Source: Octopus vulgaris
Lineage: Eukaryota
Assembly: GCA_951406725.2 (NCBI GenBank)
Contig: OX597814.1
Location: 115,568,001 to 115,632,000, forward strand
DNA: 64,000 bases
Direction of reading: 5' to 3'
The translations under genes and the position numbers were made by a program. This document shows, piece by piece, positions 5,708 to 58,811 of the stretch. The notes under the pieces are model-generated. The model made no database searches, was not told where the DNA came from, and was given only the letters and a program-made list of their open reading frames with translations. The stretch's first letter is position 1. The number at the start of each line of letters is the position of its first letter.

Positions 5708-6269
5708 TTGGGTTGTCCAGAAAGTTCATGCCAATTTTTAAAGGAAAGAAAAAGGTCAATAAATACCTGCCATTACATTTTTAATCAACCAAATATGAAC
5801 CATTTTGTTGCACAATGCGTCTCCATCTTTCCTTTAACTTGAAAATACCCTCTTCCCAGAATTGAGGTGGTTTCACGGCAAAGAATTCATCAAAGGTATC
5901 TTTTTATGTCATTCAAGGAATTGAAATTTTTACCATTAAGACTATTCTGCAGAGACCTGAATAAGTGGAAATCTGAAGGAATGACATCTGGTGAATATGG
6001 AGGGTGGGGTAACACATCACAGCCCGAGCTGCAGCAATTTTTGTCTGGTTCCCAAAGCATCAAGTGCCGAAAATGAACTTACTTATTTTAAAGGGTTACA
6101 GAATTAACACAGGTTATAGGAACATAAACCTTCTTCCACGAAAATATAGCTTAAATTGTGCTCTGAATGACAGTGTAGTCAAATCCTATTTTATGGACTC
6201 AACCATGTTCTAAAGTTAAGTCGAAAAGTAAGCTACTATAAATCGGCATGAACTTTCCGGACAACCTAA
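5708..6269 (-). mobile_element. internally deleted mariner (Tc1/mariner) element
   Basis: TIRs TTGGGTTGTCCAGAAAGTTCATGCC / GGCATGAACTTTCCGGACAACCTAA with TA flanks; the minus strand encodes the remnant LPHPPYSPDVIPSDFHLFRSLQN...ERWRRIVQQNGSY. Confidence 0.9.
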
Positions 6270-6620
6270 TACATGCACACATGCCAAAACATCCTAAAAA
6301 TTTGATTTTGATAGAGAAATATTCTTTCTGCACACAGAACAGCATAAAAATACCAAAATCAGTTCAAAGCACCGTCTCGCAGATTGACGGATGCATTTCA
6401 AATTAGTTATGAGCATCAAATGCCAAAGAAAGGCAGCTCCAAACTAAGAGATTAAGTTTATCTTGCAGAAATCAATCAAAATATTTTGACTGGTTACACT
6501 TTTTAGACTGCCCAGTCATGTGAATTCCAGATTAGAAGTGCCAAGGAGGGACTGAAAGAAATGTAAACTTGTTACCAGTTCAAAATATGTTTAAGATATG
6601 TTTGACTATCCTTCTTATGG

Positions 6621-7105
6621 CGTAGTGGTTAAGAGCATGGGCTATTAACCCCAAGATTCCGAGTTCGATTCCAGGCAGTGACCTCATCATCATCATTGTT
6701 TAACGTCCATTTTCCATGCTAGCATGGGTTGGACGATTTTGACTGAGGGCTGGCAAACCAGATGGCTGCACCAGGCTCCAATCTTGATCTGGCAGTGTTT
6801 CTACAGCTTAATGCCCTTCCTTACGCCAACCGCTCCGAGAGTGTAGTGGGTGCTTTTTACGTGCCACCGGCATGGGGGCCAGTCAGGCGGTACTGGCAAT
6901 GACATCGCTCGAATCTTTTTACACATGCCACCGGCACAGGTGCCAGTAAGGTGACCTGAATAATAATAATATCGAAAAATACCTTAGAAATGAGAACCCA
7001 GGTTCGAAATTTTCCCAAGACACCTGATGAAGGCTGGAGGGGTATATCAGCCGAAACGTGTTAACAACAAACAAGATGAGGACAAATATCCGTCAAATGT
7101 AAATA
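6621..7105 (+). mobile_element. tRNA-headed SINE-like element with a hammerhead-ribozyme-like 3' part, interrupted by a nested RTE tail at 6685-6950
   Basis: A box TGGCGTAGTGG and B box GTTCGATTCC; core CTGATGA-A-GGCTG..CAGCC-GAAAC at 7024-7057; 13-bp TSD ATCCTTCTTATGG at 6608-6620 and 7106-7118. Confidence 0.75.
6685..6950 (-). mobile_element. 5'-truncated RTE LINE 3' tail with (GAT)n end, nested
   Basis: Same sequence as other tails in the window; 7-bp TSD GTGACCT at 6678-6684 and 6951-6957. Confidence 0.85.
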
Positions 7106-7514
7106 ATCCTTCTTATGGGTTCAAACCTATTTAAACTGTTATTAACTTTATATTTCTTTCAATCCCTCTTTAGTACTTTTAATCCAGTTTTATATTAATA
7201 TCTAAAGAGACAAAAAAAAAAGAAAATAAGATCCCAAGTAACAATCCCTTACTGAGATATTGTTTCTTGGGATCCTATTTTCTACAAACGGAATAATATC
7301 TCTTTTACTTGTTTCAGTCATTTAACTATGGCCATGCTGGAGCACCGCTTTTAGTCGAGCAAATCGACCCCAGGACTTATTCTTTGTAAGCCTAGTACTT
7401 ATTCCATCGGTTTCTTTTGCCAAACCGCTAAGTTATGGGGACGTAAACACACCAGCATCGGTTGTCAAGTGATGTTGGGGGGACAAACACAGATACACAA
7501 ACATATACACACAC

Positions 7515-7554
<40 letters not shown>

Positions 7555-7949
7555 GCATATATACGACGGGCTTCTTTCAGTTTTTGTCTACCAAATCCAC
7601 TCACAAGGCCTTGGTTGGCCCGAGACTATAGTAGAAGACATTTGCCCAAGATGCCACGCAGTGGGACTGAACCTGGAACAGATATATATATTGCTTTATT
7701 GCCCACAAGGGGCTAAACATAGAGGGGACAAACAAAGGGATTAAGTCGATTACATCAACTCCAGTGCGAAACTAGTACTTGATTTATCTGCCCCGAAAGG
7801 ATGAAAGCAAAGTCAACCTTGGTGGAATTTGAACTCAGAACGTGACGACAGACGAAATACTGCTAAGCATTTCACCCGGAGCGCAAACATGTCTGCCAGC
7901 TTGCTGCCTTAGACACACAGACATATATATATATATACGTTGAAACCGC

Positions 7950-8275
7950 ATGGCTCAGTGGTTAGAGTGTCAGGCTCACAATCATGAGGTAGGTAATTCA
8001 ATTCTTGGACTGGGCTGTGTTGTTCTTGAGCAAGACTCTTTATTTCACATTGATCAAGTTCATTCAGCTGTAGAAATGAGTTGCGACATTTCTGGTGCCA
8101 AGTTATATCAGCCTTCGCTTTTTTCTAGAACAACATCAGTGCCATGGAGAGGGAAGGCCGGTATGCATGGATGACTGCTGGTCTACCATAAACAAATTTG
8201 CCTAGACTTGTATCTCAAAGGGGAACTTTCTAGGTGCAATCCCATGGTCATTCATGACCGAAGGGGGTCTTTTAT
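7950..8275 (+). mobile_element. third tRNA-derived SINE family
   Basis: TGGCTCAGTGGTTAGAG head; a homologous copy lies on the minus strand at ~20530-20830. Confidence 0.7.
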
Positions 8276-8484
8276 AATACAACAGGCTATTTTCACTTTC
8301 CATCTACCAAATCCACTCACAAATCTTTGGTCAGCCCAGGGATATAGTAGAAGGCACTTGCCCAAGATGACACTTCCTGGAACCATGTGGTTGGGAAGCA
8401 AACTTCTTAGCACATAGCCATGCCTGCATCTACGAGGGGAAGTCAAAATTTATCCACACTTTAACCATAACATCTTTATTATTG

Positions 8485-9116
8485 AACAGTTGTATACTGT
8501 CAACTTAACGTGACAGTCCCATAAAGGGAATCACACCACCGCTGTTTAGCCCTAGGAAGCATCAACTCTTCCTGTTGGCCGTGACGCATTTCCTGTGTCC
8601 TTACGTTTACAAGGTGGAGACAAGCACCCCCATCCAGCTAAGCCTGCATCCAGAGACTAGTTTCTGAGTCTTGCTCGTCATCAGTCTGGAGTAGCATGGC
8701 TTGCTAGCTGCAGATGCCTGTCTAGACCTTGTAAACATATAATAATTCCAGTGAGATAAATCTACTGATCACAAAAAATAGAAATATTATATTTCTAAAT
8801 ATTTCAGGGAGATATAAGCAGTGGTGGTACGATAGGCATCTGCAGCTAGCAAGCAGTGCTACTCCAGACTGACAAGCAAAATTTAGAAACTAGTCTCTGG
8901 GTGCAGGCTTAGCTGGATGGAAGTGCTTGTCTCCCCTTTGTAAACATAAGAACACAGGAAATGTCAAGGCCGACAAGAAGCGTTGATGCTTCCTAAGGCT
9001 AAATAACGGTGGTGTGATTCCCTTTATGGGACTGTCACGTTAAGTTGACAGTATACAACTGCTCTATCGTACCACCACTGCTTATATCTCTCTGAGATAT
9101 TTAGAAATATATTTCT
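8485..9116. mobile_element. hammerhead-containing ~350-bp monomer plus inverted partial copy (Penelope pLTR/retrozyme-like), inserted in the mariner
   Basis: 13-bp TSD ATCTTTATTATTG at 8472-8484 and 9117-9129; arms 8485-8719 and 8834-9062 are inverted; hammerhead core on the minus strand at 8649-8690. Confidence 0.8.
8649..8690 (-). ncRNA. type I minimal hammerhead ribozyme motif
   Basis: TCCAGA-CTGATGA-C-GAG-CAAGA-CTC-A-GAAA-CTAG-TC-TCTGGA: 6-bp stem I, 3-bp stem II, palindromic stem III (ACTAGT), GUC cleavage triplet. The C.A opposition at the base of stem II is atypical. Confidence 0.7.
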
Positions 9117-10095
9117 ATCTTTATTATTGTCACACTGCCTTCTGTGCACGTGCACTTATAGTTGGTACTATTGTGGTCATATAATCAAAGTTTGAGCCTG
9201 AATACGCCATTTTTCTTTATGGCTTTACAGTGTAAGCATGGCTGCACCACTGGTAATGTGCATCAAAGAACTAAGGAGCAGTGATCTGATTGCTCTGGAA
9301 AAGAGGTGTACAATCAACAGTGCAAGATACAGTGCTTTGCTAGCTAATAAACTGAAGACAGCAATTCGCACCAAATGCCGAAACCTATTGTCGAAGTTTT
9401 GTTGTTGCATGACAATGCATGCTATCACATGGCTGCCCAGACCTTTGAAAGCATTAACCTATTTCTTTACTACCCACAAGGGGCTAAACACAGAGTGGAC
9501 AAACAAACGGATTAAGTTGATTACATTGATCCCAGTGCGTAACTGGTACTTATTTAATCAACCCCAAAAGGATGAAAGGCACAGTCAACCTCGGCGAAAT
9601 TTGAACTCAGAACGTAACGGCAGACGAAATACTGCTACGCATTTCACTCCGCGTGATAATGACTCTGCCAGCTCACCACCTTACACATTGAAAGCATTAA
9701 ACAATTGGGTTTTGAGGTACTGGAACACCCTGCCTACAGACCAGAGCTTGCCCCTTTCTGACTATCATCATCTTTGGATCACTCAAAGATGGTTTACAAG
9801 GTCGATGATTTCCTATGGATGATGTGAAGTAAGCAGTGAATATGCAAGCTTGTGGACCACTGGACCAAGGGCATCAAAAAAGGAGACTATATATCTGTTT
9901 ATCTCCTGCTTTTGTGTAAATATATTGAAAAAACAAGAGCGCGTATAATTTTTGACTCTCCCTCGTATATAGTTGATTAATTTAACCCATAGTATTGCTG
10001 GGAGAGGTAAAATGGGAAAGGGAAAGCAGTTTTTAGTGGGGTCCCCCCACTTTTTTTTGTAATGAAATCAAAAATTTTAAAAAAAAAAGGAACAA

Positions 10096-13000
10096 TTTAT
10101 TGGAAAAAATTTTTTCTTTTATTAAAAACATTTCATGTTTAGAACTTTTAGACCAAAATGGAGTTTGATATTGTGTAAGATGGAACTTATTTCAGTTGTC
10201 ACCAACACAAGAGATGAATGAAGGAAATGTCTTTACACAAATTATGTAGAAAGAGCCAACTATATCCTGTTATTTCTACAATCATACTTTGAGACAAGTT
10301 TCTTTTGGTAACAAAGAGGCATAAAAAACGTGAAGCTGAAAATAATTCACTGAAACCATGCTTTACCTAGAAGCATTTCAAAATATATAATCATTTTAAC
10401 AGGAGAAGCTAATCTCATTCTACTGGAAGCTTGTTATATAAATAAAAGCTGACACAAACCTAAAAAGGTACCAAGGAAGTTAAATATTTCGCTGCAGATT
10501 TCAAAGTAGACATTAAATTTTTTTTTTTTTGTTTGTTTTAATAATTACATAAAGATCTGTGTGGGGGAAGAGAGAGACAGAAACATCTAGAAATCTGTCT
10601 TACAAATAGTTAATCACTAATCTGTTGTTCAACAGAAAGCAATGAAAGAAAAAAAAAGGTGATACTTTACAATGGAAAGCATGTTTTTAAAACTACGTTC
10701 TACATACTTATTTAATCTTTTATTAACAATGATACATATAGCAATGTTTTTTTCTTTAAGCTTAACCCTTTATCATTTAAGCCAGTCATATCCAGCCCAA
10801 ATATCCTACTTGTTTTATGTTCAAACCATCTAAATTTGGCCTCTCACACCTACCCAACGTCCATTTTCCATGCTGGCATGGGTTGGACGGTTTAACTGAG
10901 CTCTGGAAAGCCAGCAGCTGCACCAGGCTCCAACCTGATCTGGCAAAGTTTCTACAGCTGGATGCTCTTCCTAATGCCAACCAATCCAAGACTGTAGTGG
11001 GTGCTTTTAACATGTCACCAGCGCAGGAGCTAGTCAGGCAGGCCTGGCCTTGATCACATTTGGATGGTGCCTTTTACATGCCACCAGCACAAGAGCCAGT
11101 CAGAGGGTAAAGGCATCACCCACAATCAGTTGGTGCTTTTTACATGCCACTGGCATAGGAGCCAGTCAGGTGGACCTGGTATCAACCACATTCAGATGGT
11201 GCTTTTCATGGGATCCAATCAGCAGGCACTGGCCCCAACTATGGTATTGGTTTTACTTTACTCAACAGGTCTTCTCAAGCACATCCGGTCATTTTAAAAA
11301 TAAACACTCACATCATTGAACTCTCAAAGCTATGAGATAATCCATGATTAATTCAAAACAATGGGATTAAATAAGCTTTACATTTGACAGAGTAATCTGA
11401 ATGCTAAGGAGTTAATCAGAGAAGGACAGCACCTATAACCTCTGACAGGGCTGCCAAATCTGATGGAAGGATAAAGGAGAAATAGTGTTCTGTGAGTAAA
11501 GAATCACATCATATAGTGAGGACTGTTTGGGGTTAGAGTGTACAGTTTGTGTTCAACCTGGCCAGATCTGGCTTTTCACACCTATCATACAATGTCATTC
11601 TAAAAATAAACAACAATCATAATCTTGAAGCTACAAGTTAATGCATGATAAATCTAAAACAATGTGAATAAATAAGGATTACATTTGATAGAGTAAACTG
11701 AATGCTAAAGGGTTAATCATGTATCTATGATTAAAGTGAAGAAATTTCAGAGATAAATTAATTGAAAAACAAAACAAAATATAAAAATGAGGAGATTATC
11801 TGCAAAAACAAAGAATATTTTAATACATCTATAAATATTTTTTTTTTTTAAATAATTAAGAAGCAGAAAAAGAAAGAGGGAGCAGACAAAGCTTTATATT
11901 GAAGTATTGAATTTTATTTATTTATATATATATAAACATAAAGCTAAATGACAGCAGTTCTGGTAATGGTAGTATCTTGGCGATCTGTAATTAAATAGAA
12001 TGCAACAGACAGAACAATATACAGGAAAACATATTTATGAAGAGAATATTTGGAGACGGAAAAAAAAAAAAAAAAGGTAAAAACCTACATTTTAGATTTT
12101 ATTTGATTATAATATAACTATAACTGAATGGTGAGAGGAGAGATAAATTGAGACTTGAAAGCCACAATTCTCATGTAATTGGACTAATTTTAATGAATAA
12201 TATCAATGAATGTTTAATGTTCAGTACAAAGTCAAATTGGTAATAATTACATATGAATACATTATTTAGTCACCACTTAGTGACTTGAGTAAAATGTTCA
12301 ATAAAATCTTTCCCTGGGGTAGCAACAGGGCAGGTGGATTTTACAGCTAACCGGATCTCCCAGCAGTTGTCATACATCATATATATATATTATATATATA
12401 TATATATTAATGTATGTATATAAAATGTTCTTCTAGATACATTTAATTTGTTTTTTTTTATATCAAGCAGCATAATGGGGAATTCGTATTATGTTTTTTT
12501 TTATTATATTTTATTAACTAAGCTGTAACAACACACAAACATTGAAGAGAGGAGAATTGTTCTTCTGTCAGACAGAAATGCAGGATTAAGAACCAAAAAA
12601 ATATATGAAAAATAAAATCATGAACTGGATGAAGTAATGGTGAAAACTAATTTTTACAAATTTGGTAAGGGCCACTTTTAGGAATGGCAGCTTGTTTTAA
12701 AACATACACAAGCAAACAAAACAAGAAACAATAAAATGCAGTTTTCATACCACGTGTGTGTGTGTGTATATATATGTATATGTAGGGGTACTTTTCAAGT
12801 TACAGCTGATGAAACTACTGTGGAATGTTTAAAAAAAAAAACCAAAAGGTGGGGCAGAGTTCCCGCCACTGTTTAAATAAACAGACATATAAGGTAAGCA
12901 GATGTACATAGACACAATGAAAAACTTTTCCTCTCAACAAAAATGCTTCTTTTAAATTTGATGTATGTATATGTGAGTGCACATATATGTGTGTGTGTGT

Positions 13001-15967
13001 AGGTAGGTATGTATATATATACAAACTAGTGAAATTAATGTTTGTTTTATCCATCTTACAAATATTTACTGCTTTTAGAAGCAGCTACATTTCTGACTCG
13101 ATTAGAATATTTCTATATATATATTTTTTTTGTTTTGATATATATAAACTCTATGAATCTCAATTAGATTTTCCATCTGAGGAAGGTGATACAGGAGACA
13201 TTTTCATGAAATTGAGCACAAAAGTTTCAATAACAAGCATTGATGATGACAAAAAAAATGTTTGGATGTAAAAACTTTGAAAAAAAAATTTAATAAATAA
13301 ATATCAGGAAAAGTTGATTAAAAAAATAAATAACACATACATTTGGACCCATTGACTAAGAATTGAGTGAAAAAAAAAATTTTTTTTTATGAAGTTTATC
13401 TGAAATAATATCACTAAAGAAAAATTGTCACATGCAAAATTTTGTAGGTGACAAATGTTTTGTATGTAATTTTGTCATTCACAGACACACTCAGATATAT
13501 TCTCTCTCACTAACACTGAAAATTATTACCAAGAATATACAGACAAATTGAGTTATATACTTCTAAAACAGTTTTAAATGTTTGGTAATTTTTTTCTTAT
13601 ATTTATTCAAGTTTCTAAAATCTTTAACCAACTTGAAAGGTATCAACTGAAATATGGCATAAAATTTGAATTTTTTTTTTTTTTTTTCTTTTTTTCATGT
13701 ATGTAATATTCTACCAATGGTGTGTGTGAATGTCAAATAGGTTTTGTTGAAATGAATATTAAATGAAAATGTTGATAAGAATTAACTAAAATTCTGACAT
13801 TAAATTCTGAGTCGAAATCATAAACAAAAACGGGATCTCTTAAGAATTATCAAAATTGATAATTAATGAAATTCATCTAATTAGATAAGATCCATTAACA
13901 ATATCAATTCTTTGGGATATTCTCCTGAATAAGAATTAAATACTAATCACTTATTCTAATTAAATTTTCCCAAATCAAAACAGTCTCTTTGCTAGGAGAG
14001 CTAACAGTCACATCTCCCTCAAATTACACTCTGCTTTAAACAAGGCTGTTGTAGTACTAGGTATACTATGCCTGCAAATAAACCTAGGTACAGCAAGAAT
14101 ACATTTGATCATAGGTCAGCTCAATCAGGGCAAACCTAGGGCTAAACAATAACATCGTTACTCTTGAGGATTTAAGGAAGATGCTTGGTTTTTTTTTTTT
14201 CAAACTTTATCTAAAAATTACTATTTTCTTATTAAAAATGGATTTCTTTTTCACAATATCTCAATAGAAATATAAAATATATTTTGGTAAGGACTCATAA
14301 CTGAATACTTAGAAAGTAGGGAGAAGGGGCAGGGGTAAAAAAAATCAGAAACAGCCTCGAATCTGGATATTTGCCTTTGGCACTTTGAGGAATGTTGAAA
14401 GAATAATTAAGGAGAAATTATGATAACCAGTCTAATGAAGAATTAACAGACTCAATAAACATTTAATTCAAGGTAAATCAGTTGTAATTGAGTTAAAGAA
14501 CTTCCATGAAGAATTTCGTTCATTCAAGTTTCATCTCTGCAATTGGCAGTGAAGAGATCCTCAAAATGGTTGTAATTAGGTGATGGTGATGTGGTGGGGT
14601 GGATGCAGTGCTGCTCAGATTATAATAACCACCTGTTTACAGCTGAAGCATTGTTCTAGTTGATGAACAAATGGAAAAGAGGAATATTATATATAAAAAA
14701 AAAAAATTTAAAAAAAACGAAAATGTGTATGTGTGTATGTGATTGTTCTATGAAAAGGCAGCTATAAAAATGGCAAATATAGTTACAATAGAAATTAGCA
14801 GCAGAATAGGAGAAATGAATGAGAAGAAAAAAATTACATTCCTATCTAGACTGCCGTCTATGTACCACAAATGCTAAGCTGTAGTAATTTTCACAGGTAT
14901 TACATTTTGCAGATATGTGTGTATATGTATATATATTTATATACATATAGACATACACACACACATATATATATAGATGTGTGTGTATATACATATATGT
15001 GTGCATGTTTATGTGTATGTATATATATATATATATATATACACACACATGCCCACACAGACATGCATGCACACACAAGATGTACACGGAGAAACCTTTT
15101 AAAAGTCCCATTTACAATGGATGCACTTTGAACACATTCTAATATAACTGACTATATTGATAAGGAACATCAGTAAAAAGTTGATCTTCAACGGGTGTCC
15201 TGATTCCATAGGCAACAATCGTTAACTGGGATAGTATTTCCAATCAGTTGACAAACTGGTCAATAAAACTGTTTTTTAGAAATTTGCTTAGACACCAAAC
15301 TCTTCCTCCTCCAGTTCAAGATGTAGTCAACCTCACATATACACCCTTTGAATTTCCACCACAAATCTACAGTTATCTGTTGATAAACATCAAGGATATC
15401 ATAACGTGTAGGTTCACATTCCTGGTCCTATGGGAAATAGGCTGCCTACAGTCGTAACAGGTTTTTCACATAATTATATTTCAACAAAGCAAACAGAGGT
15501 TTGAATATTGGTTCCATAGTTGCTCAATCAAGGACAAGAAAAAACAATAATAATAATTATGCTTATGTCAAAGGTTGAATTGGATGTGAAAGATTAACTT
15601 TTCATGATGTTTCTTCAAACAAAAAAAGACATTCTATTAAAATACAATTTTCATCAAGTCTCAAGAGATTCAAAGTTGCAAATAGTTTGTGTGTACACCA
15701 AATATACAAAACCCCTCAGACCCTGTGGTTATTTGATATTTTTTTTATTTAATTTTTTTTTTTGTCTTTTAAATGGAATCCAGTATAAATACCAAATAAA
15801 ATGGGAAACAAAAATACAGTAAACAAATCCCCACAAAGTAAGAGAGGTTCAGCAATGACAATATAACAAATGTAAATCGCAGTCTCTTTATTATTATTAT
15901 TAATAATATTATTTGATGAAAGACACATGGTAGTGAGCTCCTGCTTACTACCCCAGTGGTAGGGAGA
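10096..15967 (-). other. putative long SBNO 3' UTR
   Basis: Very AT-rich and almost free of the common SINEs between about 11.75 and 15.95 kb; minus-strand AATAAA at 10096-10101 and other positions. The true end is unknown. Confidence 0.35.
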
Positions 15968-16101
15968 TCATAAAAGCACTGGCATACTGAGGTGCACGTT
16001 TTCATTGACACTGTTGTCTGGAGTTTCTGTGTATGTGTGAGCAGAGTCTTGAGATAATACATTACACAAGGCTTTCAAACAATTCCCAGGAATTAAACTT
16101 C
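15968..16101 (-). CDS. SBNO1: SBNO terminal coding exon SLIPGNCLKALCNVLSQDS...MPVLL-TGA
   Basis: TAG acceptor at 16102-03, phase 1; IPxNC conserved; TGA at 15970-15968. Confidence 0.92.
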
Positions 16102-16369
16102 CTACAAACAAGAAAAGAAAGGAAAAGTGTAATAATTAAATCAAACTATAAAATGATAATACTTCAATGATCAACAAGCTGTTAACATCTCTCCTGTTAA
16201 TCCCATCATTAAACATCCATTCTTCCATGCTTGCATGGGACAGATGGAATCTGTTAAGGCAGATCTTCAGCAGGATGCCCTTCCTGTTACCAATCCTCGT
16301 CTGGTTCCATACAAGGTAATAGTTTTCCATAGCCAGACAAGTTTCACAGAAGACAGAAAATGAACAATA

Positions 16370-16954
16370 TATAGATGTTTTCGATCTAGTTTGGATTCTT
16401 TGCCATTAAATTTGAATTTTTCAATTGGTGCTCAAGCCTTGAAAAAAAAAAAAAAAGAGTTAAACTACATCAGCCTTAAGGGGATACATGTCTATCTTTT
16501 CTAACTCGTCCAGTAGAGCCCACCAATTGATATCTGAAAAGTTTGATGAAATAACTCATGAACACTGCGATAGCTTCTACTAAAAGGCAGCTCCGTTACG
16601 TCGACCGGTCTGAACAAGGGGAGATAATAAACGAGTGATTCTTTTTTTTCTATTATCCTCCCTTCTTCAGACCAGTCGACGTAACGGAGCTTCTTTTCAT
16701 AGAAGCTATCGCAGTGTTCATGAGTTATTTCATCGAACTTTTCAGATATCAATTAGTGGGCTCTACTGGACAAGTTAGATAAGATAGACATGTATTCCCT
16801 TACGGCTGATGTAGTTTAACTCCTTTTTTTTTCAAGGATTGAGCACCAATTGAAAAATTGAAAAATTCAAATTTGATTGCAAAGAATTCAAATTTGATTG
16901 CAAAGAATTCAAATTTAATGGCAAAGAATCCAAACTAGATCGAAAACATCTATA
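16370..16954. mobile_element. fold-back/MITE-like element with ~260-bp inverted arms, in the last SBNO intron
   Basis: Termini TATAGATGTTTTCGATCTAGTTTGG / CCAAACTAGATCGAAAACATCTATA; short spacer near 16630-16650; 21-bp tandem expansion in the right arm. Confidence 0.85.
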
Positions 16955-17561
16955 ATTTGCATGATGTTGAGACAAGGGTACACACACACACACACACACA
17001 CACACAAAGGGCTTTTTCCAACTTCCATCAATAAAATCCATTTATAAGGATTTGGTCAGCCCAGGATTAAAGTAGAAAACACTTGCCTATGGTGCCATGG
17101 AGTCGGACGGAACCTGGAACCATGTAGTTTGGGGAGCAAACTTCTCGTGTAGTCATTTAACTGTGGCCATGCTGGGGTACTACCTTGAAGAATCACCCTT
17201 GATGCAAATTATTTTGTTTAAGCCTGGTACTTATTCTATCAATCGTTTTTGCCAAAAAGCTAAGTTACAAGGACATAAACACACCAACACCAGTTATCAA
17301 GCAATGGGGGTGGTGGACACACACAAACAAACACACATTTATACAGCAGGGCTACATTCAGTTTCCATCTACCAAATCCACTCCCAAGTCTTTGGTCAGC
17401 CCGAGGCTATAGTAGAAAACACTTGCCCATGGTGCCGCACAGTGAGACTGAACCTGGAACCATTTGGTGTGGGGACAAACTTCTTACCATATGCATATTA
17501 GTTCTCACAAAAAAAAAAAAAAAGATACAAAAGAAGAATAAATAAAGCAAACAATACGTAC

Positions 17562-17758
17562 CAACAATTCTGCGATTGTCATCAGTTCGAAGTCGGATTA
17601 TCTGCATTTTGGAGCTGGCACCTCCGGGTAATGATGCAAGCACACTCTCTACTTTACTCCAGACACTAAGGACTGAACCACTTAGTACGTGGTAAGTCCT
17701 TGTACGTAAACCTATTTCACAATGTAGTCCCATGCTTGTCTTTTTACAATTTCCTTTC
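17562..17758 (-). CDS. SBNO1: SBNO exon [33 protein letters not shown]...RIVG
   Basis: AG/GT boundaries, conserved sequence. Confidence 0.96.
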
Positions 17759-18658
17759 CTATAATCAAGAAAAACACATATCTTAAGTAATAATATACAT
17801 CATCATCAACAGATTGTGATAAAGTCCACTTTCTCATGCTTGCATGGGTGCGGTGAAATTTTTTGAGAAAGAGTTTCTACAGTCAGATGCTCTTCCAGTC
17901 ACCAACTCCAGCTTGTTTCCAAGTAAGGTAATATTTTCCCCCATGCAAAACATAATTGTCACCACTACTGCATGAACCTGAAGATTACATAGTTTAATGC
18001 ATGAAAGTACTAGTTTAAACAGAATGGACATCATTTCTTTATATATTATATTATATTATTATAAGATTGTGAACATTCGAGTGAGATCGTTGCCAGTGCC
18101 AGTACCGCCTGACTGGCCTTCTTGCCGGTGGCACATAAAAGCACCCACTACACTCTCGGAGTGGTTGGTGTTAGGAAGGGCATCCAGCTGTAGAAACTCT
18201 GCCAGATCAGATTGGAGCCTGGCACAGCCATCTGGTTCGCCAGTCCTCAGTCAAATTGTTCAACCCATGCTAGCATGGAAAGCAGACGTTAAACAATGAT
18301 GATGATGATATTGTCATTTAATGTCCACTCTCCATGCTAGCATGGTTTGACATGGAGCTGTCCAAACTTCACCTGTCTGTTATGGTGTGGTTTCTATGGC
18401 TGGATGTCCTTCCTAACACCATAGTCTTAAATCATTCTTCTTTTGTTAGACTTATACTTATCAGTGTTGTGACATTGACCAAATAACTGATCTCAACCTT
18501 ATTCATACAAAAAAAAAAAAGACACTATTGTCCATTTAGTTAACTTTCATGTGGAAAGCCTGACAAGAAACTAAACAAAACAAAATTAATGTTAAAAAAA
18601 AAAAAGGAAGAAAAAACAAAGAGCTCTTTGAAGCATCCTGTTTACATAAACTACATAC

Positions 18659-18735
18659 CAGTAAGCATGGATACATGTTTTTGCTGAAGAGTGATATTGA
18701 TCATTCCACCAACTGTGTGCTTCATCTGGCATCAC
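18659..18735 (-). CDS. SBNO1: SBNO exon VMPDEAHSWWNDQYHSSAKTCIHAYW
   Basis: AAG acceptor, GTATGT donor; C-x-HAYW conserved. Confidence 0.92.
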
Positions 18736-19084
18736 CTTTATTTATAAGAAATACAGAGAGAAAAAAATAACTGAGTCAGGCATAAACAGACACCAGTGAT
18801 GATTATACAATATTTTATGAAAACTTCAAAACAAAATTTGTAAAAGTGTTGTCATATTTTTAAATCTTTAGTATTTAATCTAGCCAGATTTGGCTCAAAT
18901 ATTCTACCTGTTTTATGGTCAAACCAGCCAGTTTTAGCTTCTCACACATGCCCCTACATTGTCAGTCTAAATATATACAACTGCATCATAAGAATCTCAA
19001 AATGCATGATTAATTGAAAACAATGTAAACAAGAGCACTCAGAGAGCACAAACCTCTGCCAACGCAACACCAACGTCCTCTCAA

Positions 19085-19370
19085 CGACACGGGGCCAGAC
19101 AGAGCTGGCAAACGGCCACGAACGGATGGTGCTTTTACGTGCCACCGACACGGGGCCAGACAGAGCTGGCCAACGGCCACGAACGGACGGTGCTTTTACG
19201 TGTCACCGGCACGGGGCCAGGCAAGGCTGGCAACGAACACGAACGGATGGTGCTTTTACATGCCACAGACACGGGGCCAGGCAGAGCTGGCAAACGGCCA
19301 TGAGCGAATGGTGCTTTTACGTATCACCGGCACGGGTGCCAGACGAGGCTGACAGCGGACACGAACAGAT
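19085..19370 (-). repeat. ~60-bp tandem repeats (about 5 units) in the RTE 3' UTR
   Basis: Unit ...GGTGCTTTTACGTGCCACCGRCACGGGGCCAG... repeated. Confidence 0.85.
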
Positions 19371-19419
19371 GGGTCACTTAACCCCTGCTTTCTGATATAT
19401 GATTTGATTTTGATTGTTC

Positions 19420-20301
19420 TCACTGGTCTTGCCGGGTCTTCTCACGCACAGCATACTTCCATAGGTCTCGGTCTCTGGTCATTTCCTTGGTGAGACCTAG
19501 AGTTCGAAGGTCGTGCTTCACCACCTCAACCCAGGTTTTCCTGGGTCTACCTCTTCCACAGGTCCCCTCAACTGCCAGGGTGTGGCACTTTTTCACACAC
19601 CTATCTTCATCCATTCTCACCACATGTCCATACCAGCGCAATCGTCTCTCTTGCACACAACATCTGATTCCTCTTAGGTCCAACTTTTCTCTCAATGTAC
19701 TTACACTCTGTCGACTATGAACACTGACATTACACATCCAACGGAGCATACTAGCTTCATTTCTCGCGAGCTTACGCATGTCCTCAGCAGTCACGGCCCA
19801 TGTTTCACTGCCATGTAGCATGGCTGTTCGTACACATGCATCATACAGTCTGCCTTTTACTCTGAGCGAGAGGCCTTTAGTCACCAACAGAGGTAAGAGC
19901 TCCCTAAACTTTGCCCAGGCTATTCTTACTCTAGCCGTTACACTTTCAGCACACCCACCCCCACTACTGACTTGGTCACCAAGATAACGGAAGCTATCAA
20001 CCACTTCTAGTTTTTCCCCCTGGAAAGTGACGGAAGTAGTTTTCTGCAGATTTTCAGAGGTTAATGCTCCCGAGCATCTGCCACATACAAAAACCATCTT
20101 CCTAGTTAGCCTTCCTATGACATTGCTGCACCTCTTATGTGTCCATAGCTTACACTTGGTGCATCTTATAGAGTTTCTACCTACACCTTTTCTACAGATC
20201 GAGCAGGGCCATCTACCTGAAGGCGTTTGTGATTTGTCTACCTTCCTACTTATTACGACTTTGGTTTTAGCTAGGTTGACTCTAAGGCCCTTCGATTCTA
20301 A
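19420..20301 (-). pseudogene. RTE ORF2 C-terminal fragment (RT end, PHD-like finger, C-terminal region), uninterrupted frame
   Basis: About 294 codons with no internal stop; includes ORF 19420-20097. Confidence 0.88.
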
Positions 20302-21736
20302 AGCACCAACCGAACGTGGAAGTTGCCAGCCTCCCCTGGCCCCTGTGCCAGTGGCACGTAAAAAACACCCACTACACTCACGGAGTGGTTGGCATCCAGC
20401 TGTAGAAACACTGCCAGATCAGACTGGAACTTAGTACAGCCTCCAGGCTTCCCAGACCCCGGTCAAACTGTCCAACTCATGCTAGCATGGAAAACGGACG
20501 TTAAACGATGATGATATATATATATATATATAGGGTATTGCATCTAGAAAGTTCCCCTCCGAGGCACAAGTCCAGGCAAGGTTGTTTATAGAAGACCAGC
20601 AATCGCCCATGCATACCAGCCTCCGCTCTCCTTGCCACTGATGTTACCCAAGAGAAAGGCAAAAGCCAACACAGCTTGATACATATCGTGACTCATTTCT
20701 ACAGCTGAGTGAACTGGAACAACATGAAATAATGTGTCTTGCTCAAGAACATAACACACACCCAGGTCTGGGAATCGAACTCACTACCTCATGATTGTGA
20801 GCGTAATGCTCTAACCACTGAACCACAAACCTTCACATACATCTATTTCTACCATATAAAGTTTACTCTATGCTTTGAATCACTGTTCACTCATCTTAGA
20901 ATGCTTTTAATATACATTTTGTTTCATGTACTTTCATCTGTCTTACAGTTCTATAGTAGCAACTCTTTCCATGAAACTTTTGGGGAAACATGGTCACCCA
21001 ACACTTTGCTTCTGCTCTCAGCTTCCATCTTGAGAGAGGGTAAAAAGATTCAAGTGAGGTTATTGCCAGTATCACTTGACTGGCCCCCGTGCCGGTGGCA
21101 CGTAAAAAGCACCCACTACACTCTCGGAGTGGTAGGCGTTAGGAAGGGCATCCAGCAGTAGAAACTCTGCCAAATCAAGATTGGAGCCTGGTGCAGCCAT
21201 CTGGTTTGCCAGCCCTCAGTCAAAATCGTCCAACCCATGCTAGCATGGAAAGCGGACGTTAAACGAATATGACAATACCTCCTCTTTTGTTATGGTAAAA
21301 GTCAATGTTATCCCTGAATGTTGCTGAAATAAAAACCATTATTCTAAAATACAACAAATCCCACCTAAAGTCAACTGCATTATGTGGAAACTATAAATAC
21401 AAAATAGTTAAGGAGGAAGGGAGCACTAACAATTTGAATGTTTCTACCATTACTAAATATCACCAATGAAAAGCCAACAAATGTGCTGAGCCAATGACGG
21501 GTCTCTACATAGTTGCTTCATTTACTAGAAAGAGCAACCAAATTAAAATAATATACACAAAACATCTAGATAAAGAATACCCATTGGCCCCAGCTTAATG
21601 ACTCTGGATCAAAGGTTTGCAGGATCAAGATTGACTTAGGGGCTACCCAACAACCGCAACACCCCAAGTGTGCTGACAAATTACACACTAAAGCGAGATT
21701 GTTTCTAAATCTACACAAACAAGACAATGTTATTAC

Positions 21737-21883
21737 CTTCTTGAATTTCTTCTTCAACTCAGCTGGTGTTTCTGAACGAGGCTGTAAACCAGTATTTGGA
21801 CGGTAGACGTGGTACATCCTCTCTTTCTTCTTCACTGATGTTGGCATAACAGCAAGCACAGCAGTCTTTTTACCATTTCTCAT
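21737..21883 (-). CDS. SBNO1: SBNO exon MRNGKKTAVLAV...YRPNTGLQ...LKKKFKK
   Basis: Uncommon AAG acceptor, GT donor; YRPNTG conserved. Confidence 0.93.
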
Positions 21884-21900
21884 CTTTGAAAGAAACAGAG

Positions 21901-21937
<37 letters not shown>

Positions 21938-22621
21938 GTAATCCTTTGTACTATAGGCACAGGACTAGAAATTGGGTGGGGTAGTCAATTACATTGACTC
22001 CAGTGTGTAACTGGTACTTATTTCACTGACCCTGAAAGGATGAAAGGCAAAGTCTATCTCAGCGGAATCTGAACTTATAACACAAGCAATATGTCTGGCA
22101 TGCTAACAATTTTGTCAGCTCGCCATCTTAATAATAATCCTTTCTGCTGTAGGCACAAGGCCTGAAATTCTGGGGGAGGAGGCTAGCCGATTACATTGAC
22201 GCCAGTCCTCAACTGGTACTTAATTTATCGACCTTGAAAGGATGAAAGGCAAAGTCGACCTCAGTGAAATCTGAACTCAGAATGTAGTGACGGGTGAAAT
22301 ACCAATAAGCATTTTTTAATAATAAGAATAATAAATCATAAGAAAAAATAACATTTTAAAATATTTCATTTTTCTTTCATTTAACGAATCTAGCTGATTG
22401 ACTGATCAAACAATTAATCAACCAATTGATTAATTGGATAAATGTTAACATATTTACTACTGTGATACATCATGTAAATTTCCTAACTCTTTCATTCTTT
22501 AAGACCACCAAAAAGTCGTCATACACTAGTTCAAGCCATCCCCAAAATATAATTCTTGGTAAAGCATTTTTACTAAACTTAAAAAAGAAATAAAAAAGGT
22601 AAAAATATGTAGACCACAGAC

Positions 22622-22714
22622 CTGTGCCGATAGATAAAATCCATCATCTTGACCTTTGCATTCTTTCCAAATATCTATTGCTTGATTCCAGGACAATCCA
22701 CGCTCCACACTTAC
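22622..22714 (-). CDS. SBNO1: SBNO exon [31 protein letters not shown]
   Basis: 93 nt, phase 0-0; starts with GTAAGT immediately after the acceptor AG and ends at a weak GTCTGT donor. Confidence 0.94.
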
Positions 22715-22910
22715 CTAGAAATTTAATTAAAATGCATGAAAAGTGAGAAAGAGAAGAAAAAGAACAGACAAATAGAGTGGTGATGGTGGAAGAGGACAAG
22801 CAGCAGCAGCAAGCATGTGTGCTTCCTTTGCAAAGACTACATTTTTAGTGTCCTCTCTTCCTTACATAGCAAGGTTAATTATCAGAAACACATCATATAT
22901 ATATATATAT

Positions 22911-23389
22911 ATTAGAAATATTGAATCTCTAAATGTCTCAAAGAGACATGAGTGGTGGTGGAGCGATAGAGTGGTTACATACTGTCAACATAACATGACA
23001 GTCCCGTAAAGGAAATTACACCACCGCTATATAGCCCTAGGAAGCATCGACGCTTCCTGTCGGCTATGACACATTTCCTGTGTCTTTATATTTGCGAAGG
23101 GGAGGCAAGCACCCCCACCAGCTAGGACTAGCAACCTGAAGACATGCATGTTTCTGGGTCTTGCCTGTCATCAGTCCAGGATAGCAAGTCCTGCTAGTCG
23201 AGATACCTGCCAAGCCTTCGCAAATATATATATTTACAGTGAAATCTATTCACTGGTCACTGTAATTAGAAATATTGAATTTCTAAATGTCTCAAAGAGA
23301 CATGAGCGGTGCACTATTTAGCCCTAGGAAGCATCGACGCTTCCTGTCGGCTTTGACACATTTCCTGTGTCCTTATATTTGCAAAGGGG
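22911..23389 (-). mobile_element. tandem (354-bp period) copy of the same hammerhead monomer family, in an SBNO intron
   Basis: ATTAGAAATATTGAA..CTAAATGTCTCAAAGAGACATGAG recurs at 22911 and 23265; homologous to 8485-8835 but circularly permuted. Confidence 0.8.
23135..23180 (-). ncRNA. type I hammerhead ribozyme motif, sense to SBNO pre-mRNA
   Basis: CCTGGA-CTGATGA-CAGGCAAGACCCA-GAAA-CATGCATG-TC-TTCAGG; stem I extends further (GGACTTGC/GCTAGTCC); palindromic stem III; weakened stem II. Confidence 0.65.
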
Positions 23390-24268
23390 TGGGGGTGCGA
23401 CGAAAATTTTAGGAAAATAAATATAAGAAATAAATGGAAATTTTACCGGTGAGTGTGTTACATTATAAGGCACAAAAAGAAAATGACTCTCCCCAGACAC
23501 AACAGAAATTCAATAAAGTTACCTACCCATTTAAGTTTCTAAAAATTATGAACCTTTTTGATACCAAGTCATCAGACATCAACCTTAGTTCTATGATACA
23601 AGCTTTCTATTTAAATCCTTTAGCATTTAGACTGGCCATATCCAACCCAAATATGCTACCTGTTTCATGATCTAGTCTGCCAGAGTCAGCCTATCACACC
23701 TACCCTTCAATGCCATTATAAAATATACCATCACATTGTGAAAATTCTGAAGCTACAAAATAATGCAGGATTAATTAAAAACAATTTGAATAAAAAAAAA
23801 TTACATTTGACAGAATAATTTGAATGTCAAAGGGTTAAAGTGAACTAAATTTAAGCGTTCTATCAAAAGTTTTATGTTAATTATTTCTTTATTGCCCACA
23901 AGGGGCTAAACATAGAAGGGACAAACAAGGACAGACAAAGGGATTAAGTCGATTACATCGACCCCAGTGCTCAGCTGGTACTTAATTTATAGACCCTGAA
24001 AGGATGAAAGGCAAAGTCAACCTTGGCGGAATTTGAACGCACCAGACAAAATACGGCTAAGCATTTCGCAAGGCAAGTTCCAAAACACCAGCTTAATAAT
24101 GGCAGATATTTCTTGTATTTTTCATTGTTTTCCAAATAAATCGAAACAATGGCAGTGTATTGCAACATAAATATGGTAACAAAAGAGAAAAAAAATTCAA
24201 AATAAAGAATCTAGCAAGAATTAGTTCAATCCTACTAATTCAAGATGAACCAAAAAGATAAAACTCAC

Positions 24269-24363
24269 TGTATGCAACTCAGTTCTGGCTTTGTTCAAAT
24301 CAGTGTTACCAACAAATATTTTAGATTCCAGTTTTTTAACACTTTCTCCTCCAGAACCCAAAT
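24269..24363 (-). CDS. SBNO1: SBNO exon DLGSGGESVKKLESKIFVGNTDLNKARTELHT
   Basis: AG and GTGAGT boundaries, phase 1-0. Confidence 0.93.
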
Positions 24364-24796
24364 CTAAAGAAAAGAATAAGATTAAAAGACAATGGTTAGA
24401 AATGAATTCATTTCTTTCAAATCAAAACAAGGGACAGAAGGAAAAAGCAATCTAACCACAGGTGCAGGCATGGCTGTGTGGTCGAGAAGCTTACTTCACA
24501 ACCTTGTGCTTTTTGGTTCAATCTCAGTGTGCAACACCTTGAGCAGGTGTCATCTAGAGTAGTCTCAAGTTGACCAGTGCTTTGTGAAGGAGTTTATAGG
24601 CAGAAACCATTAAGAAGCCTTTCATGTGTGTGTGTGTGTGTGTGTGTGTGTCACCACAACTTGTCAGCTGATATTGGTTTGTTTATGTCCTTATAACCAC
24701 AGTCATGGAGTTGGAAACAATTAAGGGGTAACTGGAATCAGAGTAAGTAAAACTATATGGATTCTGACTCCGACTCACAATATATTTATTCTTTAA

Positions 24797-25161
24797 CTAG
24801 CACTATGACCCGGTAACACCGGGTCATAGTGCTAGTGCATGCATATACAGCAGCGTGCATGCGCTCATACACGCGAGTACTGTCCAAATCTCCGACCAAT
24901 CGCATACAGCTAGCTGGCATTCAATTGGTGTATCACGTTTCCGGCATTTTGATTGGGCTTTGAATAGAAAATTCACAAAAAAAGTCACTTCTATTGATTT
25001 TTTAATGGCTTTGCGAAGTGACTGGGGAAATGTAAAGATGTGCATGATCACCCTTGGATGGTTTTGAATGACCATAGAAAGTGCAAACCCTCTAACTGAA
25101 AAATTGTGGATTTGTATAAAGGATACACACACAGACATTTTGCCATTTATATATATAGAGA
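24797..25161 (-). mobile_element. non-autonomous Helitron
   Basis: Minus strand starts TCTCTATATATATAAATGGC and ends CTAG with a perfect terminal hairpin ACTAGCACTATGACCCGGT-AAC-ACCGGGTCATAGTGCTAGT; inserted between A and T. Confidence 0.75.
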
Positions 25162-25703
25162 TATAAACCAGTTATAACATATAGGCCTACTCAAAGTACA
25201 AGCGTATGCATAAGCTTTATGAGATATGGAGACCACAATCACTCAATTACATATAGAAGAGTCAGAGGTGCCAGAGTTTTTTGTTTCGACTCTCACAGCC
25301 CTGCCTGTAACTTAGCAGTTCAACAAGAGAGATCAACAGAATAAGTATCAGACTTAAGATAACTGCTGGGATTGATCTTATCAACTGGAATCTTTTCAAG
25401 GCAGTGCCCCAGCAGGGCCACACTCCAATGACTGCAAATAAAAGATATAAGTTCAAACTGATTGAACTTTTAATTCCCAGTTTCATACATTTAAGGTTTC
25501 TTAGATGTTGTCAGCCAGGAGAATGAACTGATGTAAATTGTATAGGAATGCGACAAGACAGCCATTTCAGGATTTGAAAAGCTGACTTTTGGTAACAAGC
25601 CAGTGGTGTTGTTAAGTCTTTTTACTACTAGGCAGAGGAGCAATAACGGGAAAAACAAAATCAACATTGTTTCTAGTGTGTTAAAGTTCTGTACAGTACT
25701 CAC

Positions 25704-25850
25704 CCACGATACCCATGTCCCAGCGTCCATTTCTCTTTGCATCCAAGATAATAGCTGTTAATGTCTCTGAGAAGTATTTAAATAGAGAATTCTGTTGTTC
25801 CACAGGCATTCCAAGGATTCTGTTTAAGAACTTACTGATGTTATTATATT
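25704..25850 (-). CDS. SBNO1: SBNO exon [27 protein letters not shown]...[12 protein letters not shown]
   Basis: AG/GT boundaries, conserved sequence. Confidence 0.96.
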
Positions 25851-25960
25851 CTGAAGAGAAAAGAAAAATCAGGGTTATTAATTAAAGGAAGTGAAATCTA
25901 ACAAAAAGGAGGCATTAAAAGAAGTCTCTGGAAACTTTTTAAAAGATAAAACAAGAGTAC

Positions 25961-26035
25961 CTTTTTCTAAGAGGGGAGTTCCAAGACGTTCATCTACAGC
26001 TATCATACCAACACCAATCAATGAATTCTTGATAT
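25961..26035 (-). CDS. SBNO1: SBNO exon DIKNSLIGVGMIAVDERLGTPLLEK
   Basis: AG/GT boundaries, phase 1-1; LIGVG conserved. Confidence 0.92.
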
Positions 26036-27203
26036 CTAAAATAATTGAAATAATAAGAAATTCAATTAAAGTATGGAAAAAATACACTTAAAAAAGTCAT
26101 TCAATGATTTCATTATTATTGTTGAAGGCAGCAAGCTGGAAAAATCGTTAGCATGTTGGACAAAATAATTAGTGGCATTTCATTTGTCTTTACATCCTGA
26201 GCTGAAATTCTGTTGAGGTCAACTTTGCCTTGCATTCTTTTGGGGTCAATAAATTTAGTAGCAGTCAAGCAGTGGGGTCAATGTAATCAACTAGTCCCCT
26301 CCCTCAAAATTTCAGGCATTGTGCCTATGGCAGAGAAGATTATTATTGTAGTTGTTAATATAAATTATGTAGCTAGCACCTTGAGGTAGACATTTTGCAA
26401 TAAAAATCCAAAGCTATTTAATATTATATGACATGGCTCGAGAAAAGCATGATCTCAATAATTTTTCACGGCCACACTACTTTAGTTCTTACATTTCATA
26501 ATGAAAAATAAACTAGTTACTAATTTAAATATCATATCCATCAGATGAGAATATTTAAGATGGTATTTCAACAGACGTATCATTAAGTCATCATCATCAT
26601 TGTCGTTTAATGTCCACTTTCCATGCTGGCATGGGTTGGATGATTTGACTGAGGGCTAGCAAGCCAGAAGGCTGTACCAGGCTCTAATCTGGTCTGGCAG
26701 ATTCTTATAAAAACAATTTGATTAGAAAATTCCAGACGTTTTAAAAAATAAAATGCACTCATCAAAGGGTCATTTTGGGCCTAACTAATTCAGAAGAGTT
26801 CCTTTCAAAATTACTTTTTTCATCTTTTAGTCAGGAATGAAGACAGTATCCCATGACCCTTTACAATGGCCAAAGATTGTAGGAGAGAGGATTAAAGGTA
26901 TTATCAAATCAGATGCCTGACCCAAATGCTTGCAACAGAGTGAACTCAACTTAAGAGTCCAAAGGATCAGGTGGTTGTGTTAAACCAGGCAACATATTCA
27001 GTAATCCATTCAATCACAGTAAGGTTTCAATTTCTCTTTTGTCACCAGATTTCAGAATACCAAAAGCACATATTCTGCTGAGCCAGATATGTTGCAAGAT
27101 CCACAGACAAAAGTGGACCTATGCAGCTGCTAAGTGGAATCCAAGAGATTGGAAAAGCCCACTTGGAAGTGATGATCCTTCACAATGATGGGGAGACAAT
27201 TTA

Positions 27204-50971: not shown

Positions 50972-52243
50972 TCAGGTCATTCCATAAGTTCTGTCCGATT
51001 TTACCTTTTTAAAATTGAAGGAAATTTAATAGTATTTTAGAATGTCTAATGGAATTAAAAATTATTTTTATGCATTTGTTTACATTTAAACTAATTAAAT
51101 ATTATTTTACAGAATAATAGAATTAAAATTTCTTTGATTAAAACCCTTTCTAACATGGAAGTATCCAAAGAACATTTGAAGCACAATGCTTTATGAGTAC
51201 AAAAGAGGAAACTCTGCAGCCGAAACGACTCAAAACACACTCAGTTTATGGGAAAGAATGCTTGAATGAAAGAACTTGCAGAAGATGGTTTGCAAAATTC
51301 AGAAGTGGAGAGTTCAGCCTTGAAGGTGAAGATCGAACAGGACGTCCAGTTGAGTTTGATGATAAGCTCCTTGAGGCATTACTTGAAGAAAATCCTGCAT
51401 TATCAGTTGAAGAATTGGCAATAAAGTTTAGTTCAAACCATACAACTGTTTGTCGTCATCTTCAACAACTTGGAAAGGTTCCTAAACTTGGAAAATGGGT
51501 GCCTCATGAATTGTCCAAAAGCAACCGCAAATCCCAAGTTGACATCCGCTCTCCTCTTCATCCTCGCGAACTCATTTCACTCTTTTTTGGATAGACTTGT
51601 GACTTGTGATAAGAAATGGATCTTCTATCAAAATGTTAAACATTGTAAATAGTGGCTTGGTAAAAGGAAAAAAGCTCAACCACAACAGAGAAGGGAACTT
51701 CATGGGAAAACGTTTTTTCTATCTGGTGGGATTAATTCACTTTGAATTGTTACCACCTAATGCAACAATCAATTCTCAAATCTACTGTCAGCAATCAGAG
51801 CGTTTGAACCGAACTTTGAAGAAAAAAAGACCTGCTTTAGTGAATTGAAAAGGAGCGATGTTTCATCAGGACAATGCACGACCCCACACTGAAAAGATCA
51901 CATCACAGAAGATCAAAGAGCTTGGTTGGGAAAAAAATTCCTCATCCACCTTATTCTCCCAACCTTGCTTCTTCAGATTACCATTTGTTTCGTAGTTTAT
52001 AGAATCATTTGGGGGGGCATAACTCTCGCAAGCCAGGAAGAGGTCGAAACTGATATTTCAGAGTTCTTCGCAGCGAAACTAAAAGAGTTTTAAACTGAGG
52101 GGATTAAAAATCTTGTAAATAGATGGAAGGAAGTCATAGATAATCAGGGAAAGTACATTGATGATCAAATTTCAGTTGAATATAACATTTGATCACTTGT
52201 TTTCTTTATTCAAAATCTGGACAGAACTTATGGGATGACCTGA
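50972..52243 (+). mobile_element. near full-length (~1.27 kb) mariner with a frameshifted transposase
   Basis: TIRs TCAGGTCATTCCATAAGTTCTGTCC / GGACAGAACTTATGGGATGACCTGA with TA flanks; WVPHEL, LVTCDKKW, HQDNARPH and PHPPYSP motifs are split over several frames. Confidence 0.93.
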
Positions 52244-58654: not shown

Positions 58655-58811
58655 CTACAAGAATAAATAATCGAATGAAAATGGCTGGTGGAATTAAATG
58701 TTGATATTCTTGGAAATATAATTATACAAATCAAGACGAAATAAGAAATTATTACAAACACAAGAGACAATTACTTTGAAATGAATAAATAACAAAATAA
58801 AGATAACATAC

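Follow-up and report, generated by a model that had tools for sequence, protein, structure and literature searches.

We consider it highly probable that the locus at 8472-9129 is an ORF-less 351-nt hammerhead unit that was inserted here, likely mobilized in trans by an endonuclease-positive (EN+) Penelope-like element (PLE). Most likely this element belongs to the non-autonomous PLE derivatives that resemble retrozymes. Positions refer to the window, i.e., the whole 64,000-nucleotide stretch of Octopus vulgaris DNA that was analyzed, and unit positions (U1 to U351) run along the hammerhead-bearing strand, which is the RNA sense; in arm A, which is on the minus strand, U1 is at 8835 and U351 is at 8485. 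The features of this locus and of a second locus at 22.9 kb (locus C) are as follows.

8472..8484, plus strand: left target-site duplication (TSD), 13 bp, AT-rich, identical to 9117-9129
8485..8835, minus strand: arm A, a single full 351-nt unit, the inverted arm without a tail
8602..8739, minus strand: long stem with the hammerhead at its tip, predicted in both arm A and locus C
8649..8690, minus strand: type I hammerhead motif of arm A, with C3 at 8684 and the predicted cut at 8655/8654
8831..8835, plus strand: microhomology at the head-to-head junction, GATAG versus the GACAG that precedes the start of arm B in the unit
8836..9063, plus strand: body of arm B, a 5'-truncated copy (U119-351), 207/228 identical to arm A
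8863..8901, plus strand: decayed hammerhead of arm B, with 3 core bases missing in the alignments
9064..9116, plus strand: one-sided tail of arm B (U1-56), with an AT-rich hairpin at its end, 51/53 identical to the start of arm A
9117..9129, plus strand: right TSD, 13 bp, identical to 8472-8484
22913..23311, minus strand: main part of locus C, U13-351 followed by the tail U1-57 (tail at 22913-22969), adjoining a (TA)n tract
23135..23180, minus strand: hammerhead motif of locus C, with the predicted cut at 23141/23140 and a 10-nt palindrome as stem III
23312..23389, minus strand: upstream fragment of locus C, about U219-294, joined to U13 across a predicted stem

The two TSD copies consist of the 13-mer ATCTTTATTATTG, which has no further occurrence in the window on either strand, and each copy has one base in common with the next unit base at the proposed priming points (U56/57 and U351/U1). 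The start and end of arm A meet in unit coordinates, give or take the junction microhomology (0 to 5 nt), which is 2 nt long if perfect and 5 nt long with one mismatch (4/5). The whole of arm B (8836-9116, plus strand, 281 nt) runs from U119 to U351 and then directly into U1-56, i.e., across the unit junction. The GC content of the unit is 0.43 in arm A (351 nt) and 0.45 in locus C (354 nt), and neither BLAST nor nhmmer found further copies in the window beyond arms A and B and locus C. A coding role of the unit was rejected, since the sense ATG ORFs are at most 43 aa (the longest in arm A, with the unit read as a circle) and the antisense frame is not conserved, the 71-aa frame of locus C corresponding to 3 aa in arm A; no ORF on either strand is conserved between the unit copies. 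The original prediction of one ~350-bp monomer plus an inverted copy within a 13-bp TSD is therefore borne out, with "exactly one" holding to within the junction microhomology, and so are the reading of the inverted copy across the unit junction, the noncoding nature of the unit and the AT-rich duplication, whose two identical copies are the only ones in the window.

Locus C (minus strand, 22913 to ~23389) spans about 1.5 units, which are arranged in the order U~219-294, U13-351, and U1-57. Its unit period is 354 nt, and 273 of 348 positions (78%) are identical to arm A; by segment, the likeness is 0.66 to 0.72 at U51-150 and 0.80 to 0.86 at U151-350. U13-57 is present twice in this locus, and the two copies are identical at 43 of 45 positions. 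No TSD was found around locus C. The join of U294 to U13 (23311/23312) drops 69 nt that are enclosed by a predicted stem (U~7-19/U~293-305), and it may be either a hairpin skip by the reverse transcriptase (RT) or a later deletion in the DNA. At the 5' end of the locus (23388-23398) there is an inverted unit piece of 9 to 11 nt, which is possibly a short template switch onto its own cDNA. Pfam AAA_34 and SBNO matches on the minus strand (58332-58721 and 21569-21964) represent exons of a probable strawberry notch gene; locus C is between these exons and is thus likely intronic, with the hammerhead on the pre-mRNA strand. The last coding exon of this gene, judging from likeness, is presumably near 15970, with the 8472-9129 locus ~7 kb beyond it.

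The RNA 3' ends of arm B and locus C are at the same unit base, U56/57, and the 3' end of arm A is 56 nt earlier. Arm B and locus C are different variants of the unit, yet they end at one base. Contig coverage supports this direct coincidence of ends but does not prove it. Contigs from four public runs were aligned to 8440-8845 at 80% likeness; two of these runs (X1 and X6, from two organisms) are guessed to be DNA and contributed 2857 and 2985 contigs, and the other two are guessed to be RNA and contributed 381 (X11) and 67 (X17). The numbers in the two DNA-guessed runs indicate that the family is large and common to at least two species labels. The summed depth, which is not a copy number and cannot rank the parts of a stretch, is 642,349 (X1) and 527,193 (X6) at 8496-8509 and 3,802/1,670 (X1) and 35,742/26,442 (X6) at 8804-8831. 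These two segments adjoin at the unit junction and show similar conservation in arm A versus locus C (0.80 and 0.78), and the depth just inside U351 is about 15 to 380 times that on U5-32 across the junction in X1 and X6, a contrast to be read with the AT-rich tail hairpin in mind, which may attract unrelated contigs. Between 8762-8775 and 8776-8789 the depth rises 3 to 4 times (from 6,427 to 25,581 in X1 and from 8,881 to 26,641 in X6), and this step (8773-8779) coincides with U57, the end common to arm B and locus C, in a region (U51-150) where the lower conservation between arm A and locus C inflates the 5' fall-off in depth. Loose ends at 8489 (48 and 51 contigs, with an agreement of about 0.55) continue for ~10 nt into the tail and are AT-rich from there on, which suggests a main end zone near U10.

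Among 15 of the 18 joints in the contigs, 11 are opposite-strand, 3 are end-to-start, and 1 is a skip. Each of the 11 opposite-strand joints is found in a single contig at a depth of 45 to 65 and at a different pair of places; they are reported without orientation, so whether they are head-to-head cannot be read from them. Three end-to-start contigs are present in X11 (guessed to be RNA, with contigs that may hold DNA), and end-to-start joints fit a tail and a tandem alike. Two contigs from other samples (X6 record 32 and X17 record 24) run through U57/58, as expected of a closed unit. X17 record 24 served purely as a sequence in this respect, and the X11 and X17 contigs were counted on neither side of the question of expression or circles. 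A pattern scan for unit copies gave 0 in metagenome contigs and 0 in viral contigs.

These ends alter part of the original prediction. The locus at 22911 was said to begin the unit at a different point; its start does differ from that of arm A, but it is the same base as the end of arm B (U56/57), and locus C therefore does not show free permutation. The freely permuted start points that had been proposed are contradicted by the one 3' end common to arm B and locus C and by the depth steps at U57. The claim of a template longer than one unit stands, whereas the step from reading across the unit junction to a circular template does not follow, because the PLE "tail" described in passages of PMC11167929 and PMC3846280 does likewise, and reading across the junction implies no circle by itself. 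As for fixed termini flanking an RT ORF, which had been named as the pattern that would speak against a retrozyme, the termini do look fixed, but no RT ORF is flanked by them.

In arm A, the hammerhead opens with stem I (6 bp) and CUGAUGA, after which come an additional C and stem II (3 bp), with C and A opposed at its base; an additional A, GAAA, the palindromic stem III, and GUC complete the motif. The extra base after CUGAUGA is C, with U in about 30% of the X1 depth. An A or U is found between stem II and GAAA in arm A, arm B, locus C, and the loose-end consensus, and the G10.1-C11.1 pair does not adjoin GAAA. No variants were seen in the core boxes (8678-8684 or 8660-8664) among 40 of the 85 variant rows. 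Stem III of arm A is ACUAGU, a 6-nt palindrome, and the stem is palindromic in three variants (arm A, a contig variant, and locus C). The UA and AU variants of loop III, which together keep the palindrome, occur in 29 and 29 contigs of X1 and in 28 and 29 contigs of X6, and from these matching counts we infer that the two adjacent changes are linked. The stem III hairpin of arm A is unfavorable (+6.0 kcal/mol) and the self-duplex favorable (-4.8 kcal/mol), which fits the dimer model in passages of PMC4209133; the palindrome is predicted to make cleavage depend on the pairing of two ribozymes.

The other two hammerheads are probably dead or weak, as the core of arm B lacks three bases and stem II of locus C has an A-C mismatch. 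Stem I of locus C has three compensatory pairs relative to arm A: of its 6 pairs, 3 are changed on both sides, 1 differs as G-C/G-U, and none is broken. A relaxed type I descriptor gave one match in the window, which is arm A, and 1 match in 20 simulated windows; the locus C hammerhead was matched by neither this descriptor nor Rfam. At the gathering score, Rfam gave no match in the window or in three sub-regions, the best being RAGATH-1-hammerhead (13.4 bits, E of 3.6). Rfam miRNA matches were dismissed, as they reflect merely the long inverted repeat.

Selection on the hammerhead structure is visible from the covarying stems, in a comparison of the only two full units, arm A and locus C. Their independent folds have 54 pairs in common, 8 of which are changed on both sides and 3 on one side, and all 8 double changes are in the long stem that carries the hammerhead at its tip. 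On the other hand, 13 of the 35 changed pairs of the arm A fold are broken in locus C. When RNAalifold was applied to the three-copy alignment, the outer stem was recovered and 10 of 79 pairs showed double changes, but the hammerhead fold did not emerge. The covarying stems, together with the motif in arm A, agree with the single type I hammerhead with a palindromic stem III that had been predicted. When folded as circles, the units have z-scores of -6.4 (arm A) and -10.9 (locus C) in 60 shuffles, and 2 of 30 random window segments reach -6.4 or lower; the reverse complements fold similarly, with z-scores of -6.6 (arm A) and -8.1 (locus C).

In the proposed mechanism, the PLE protein would nick both strands of the AT-rich target 13 nt apart, which would produce two 3'-OH ends. 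Reverse transcription of the unit RNA would be primed from each end and start in one of two favored zones (near U351-U10 or at U56/57); a start at U56/57 would give rise to arm B and a start at U351/U1 to arm A. The two cDNAs would then be joined at their far ends through the GATAG/GACAG microhomology. Because U119-351 is present in both arms, either two RNA molecules or two units of one multimer would have been copied. The template would have exceeded one unit in length, and since copying passed through the cleavage site, it would have been uncut or religated; it may have been a tandem read-through transcript, which is somewhat favored, or a circle. The inverted arm, the one-sided tail, and the TSD around the whole insert match the layout of a PLE insertion. 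In arm A, in locus C, and in two contigs, the tail is followed by more of the unit and not by an ORF, which indicates that the family propagates as a closed ORF-less unit. According to passages of PMC3846280, self-priming on an antisense template is a proposed route to head-to-head repeats at junctions with palindromes; unlike those junctions, the junction of arms A and B has a microhomology and not a palindrome. Several observations are at odds with the PLE reading: the end of arm A is ~10 nt short of the loose-end consensus end (agreement of only 0.55), the tail of 46 to 56 nt is above the reported 30 to 40 bp, locus C has no TSD, and stem II lacks the usual G10.1-C11.1 pair at its base. No RT or GIY-YIG domain was found in the 15 of 38 long window ORFs that were scanned.

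Other repeats and motifs are present in the window. At 7019-7060 (plus strand) there is a minimal PLE-type hammerhead-like motif of another family, with CUGAUGA, an extra A, a 5-bp stem II, and GAAA but without the cleavage triplet. Degenerate CUGANGA...GAAA motifs at 62529 (minus strand), 43862 (minus strand), and 13169 (plus strand) fail the full descriptor and are possibly decayed PLE hammerheads or chance occurrences. A long inverted repeat at 16447-16832, with 140-nt arms that are 94% complementary, 106 nt apart, and flanked by A and T runs, may be a MITE or another palindromic stump. At 19420-20418 (minus strand) a stop-free 3' fragment of 332 aa is from an RT-bearing LINE-like element with a PHD-like finger, and its most identical named matches are from O. 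vulgaris (83%) and O. bimaculoides (80%). A mariner transposase fragment (Pfam HTH_48) is at 51154-51594 (plus strand), and a region at about 5780-6080 (minus strand) is, by likeness, what we take to be another.

As regards the shape of the template, we regard it as a tentative possibility that the same PLE machinery used a monomeric circular RNA, formed via dimeric hammerhead cleavage and ligation, with arm A as one lap that stopped at its own start and with start sites that are fixed and not random; this is a sub-case of the preferred explanation and concerns the template shape only. Arm A begins within 0 to 5 nt of its own end, as such a lap would, and the size and GC content (43 to 45%) match those of retrozymes for which passages of the literature describe demonstrated circles in mussel, coral, and axolotl. 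The copies also continue past the cleavage site, and the depth does not fall on its 5' side. Among the matches listed in X6, 1 of 11 inverted joints likewise has an arm that ends at 8835, although this joint sits where the reference arm ends and may be an edge effect. Both arm A and locus C give a compact fold as a closed unit, but the reverse complement folds about as well, so that folding is no evidence for a circle. In locus C, U13-57 and U224-294 are each present twice, and one lap is therefore no hard stop; moreover, the stem bypassed by the U294-to-U13 join would have been unwound by the time of a second lap, so the join would fit a tandem template or a later deletion. In passages of PMC11167929, uncut linear RNA is the main substrate of the anole PLE, and hammerhead mutants were inserted normally. 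The fuller proposition, that this is a very abundant retrozyme of cephalopods and that the PLE RT copies its circular RNA directly, with fixed starts, priming from both nicked strands, and a unit-length arm for each lap, appears doubtful. If it is true, these copies would be insertion-level proof that PLEs mobilize the circles of animal retrozymes, and the unit would be a minimal 351-nt cis-acting substrate for studying PLE transposition. Arm lengths across many copies offer a simple way to tell a circle from an uncut multimer as the template.

It is unlikely that the copies are just 5'-truncated stumps (a pLTR plus tail) of an autonomous PLE and not an independent mini-element. In the passages cited here, autonomous PLE insertions also show inverted arms, a tail, and 5' truncation, and Penelope-like elements make up 6.83% of O. 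vulgaris, in 190 families, according to part of PMC13282606. The tail of an autonomous PLE is described as continuing into its ORF, however, whereas the tail here continues into the unit body in arm A, locus C, and two contigs; unit sequence and not an ORF is upstream of the first tail copy in locus C, and the copies conserve no ORF on either strand. An autonomous EN+ PLE was rejected on the grounds of the closed 351/354-nt unit without an ORF. A SINE-like RNA moved by a LINE (e.g., RTE) with twin priming, or an inverted duplication or MITE that arose at the DNA level, is very unlikely. L1 twin priming typically produces a long TSD and a 5' inversion, both of which are seen here, and an RTE-like LINE fragment is in the window; nevertheless, the 3' end of the unit is neither poly(A) nor a simple repeat, the unit shares no sequence with that fragment, and the two outer ends of the insert correspond to RNA 3' ends that lie at two internal sites. 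The arms are unequal in length, head-to-head, and without terminal inverted repeats at the TSDs, which led us to reject a MITE. Least credible, at the level of an extremely small chance, is a free circular permutation in which the copies start at random points of the circle. The starts of arm A and locus C do differ in unit position on the plus strand, but the common end base of arm B and locus C would be a coincidence of an estimated ~1 in 100 on a 351-nt unit with a few nucleotides allowed, and the coverage is asymmetric across the junction, with a step at U57. Random permutation was rejected because of this common end and the polar coverage. The mobilization of an ORF-less unit by a PLE thus remains the preferred explanation.

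The kinship to retrozymes and non-autonomous PLE pLTRs that had been suggested is supported by comparison with known systems, as far as these are described in passages of the sources cited. Animal retrozymes are viewed as non-autonomous PLE derivatives (Li 2026, bioRxiv 10.64898/2026.07.22.740005; Cervera 2020, PMC7229834), and their dependence on PLEs has been argued in the same two sources from co-occurrence and pLTR phylogeny. Like the metazoan non-LTR retrozymes described there, the unit is noncoding and ~350 nt long, with a GC content under 50%, a type I hammerhead, and a compact predicted fold; its 351/354 nt fall within the retrozyme range of 150 to 450 bp, in which the mussel units are 350 to 390 bp. 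A TSD longer than 4 bp (13 bp at the 8472-9129 locus) and the proposed PLE dependence are also shared, and a mismatch at the base of helix II has been described for HHR_Amex2 of axolotl. On the other hand, neither locus in the window is a head-to-tail array with two intact hammerheads, and Li 2026 defines an "active" retrozyme as a tandem repeat in which two or more complete hammerheads follow one another. The copies here, unlike retrozymes, are dispersed, 5' truncated, and inverted, with a tail; circles and cleavage have been demonstrated for retrozyme families, whereas the hammerhead of this family is a predicted motif.

In passages of Craig 2021 and PMC3846280, EN+ PLE insertions are recognized by an inverted copy adjoining the 5' end, by a tail that is present at one end only, and by a TSD around the insert. 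In vitro, a PLE protein acts on AT-rich DNA by cleaving each strand and extending it (Frangieh 2024, PMC11167929), and reverse transcription starts at two internal sites that bound the tail (PMC11167929). The family resembles these insertions in its head-to-head arm, the tail at one end, the TSD around the whole insert, the two 3' end zones, the AT-rich or microsatellite target, and the hammerhead upstream of the tail. It differs from them in that it has no RT/GIY-YIG ORF and its tail closes back onto the unit. Adineta Pen2a has a 9-bp TSD and a 31-bp tail (Arkhipova 2013, PMC3846280); the TSD here is 13 bp, compared with 8 to 10 bp in the examples from Adineta, and the tail is 46 to 56 nt, compared with 30 to 40 reported for PLEs. 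A palindromic stem III and an additional nucleotide separating positions 9 and 10.1 are traits of PLE hammerheads (PMC4209133), and both are found here, the additional nucleotide being C or U. In contrast to those hammerheads, helix I is 6 bp with a long extension and helix II is 3 bp, which is closer to a canonical type I, and there is an extra base before GAAA, which separates the conserved G10.1-C11.1 pair from G12.

Literature searches turned up no account of a hammerhead element in octopus, and ribozymes are not mentioned for the 190 Penelope-like families of O. vulgaris in text passages and a supplement of PMC13282606. The family may well sit unlabeled among those 190 consensus sequences or in Repbase or Dfam. 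In its predicted features the unit likely behaves like a PLE-dependent retrozyme. PLE integration marks on retrozyme copies are not described in the passages of PMC7229834 and bioRxiv 10.64898/2026.07.22.740005, and the family presented here has such marks, i.e., an inverted arm, a one-sided tail, a common 3' end, and a long TSD, on a closed ORF-less unit.
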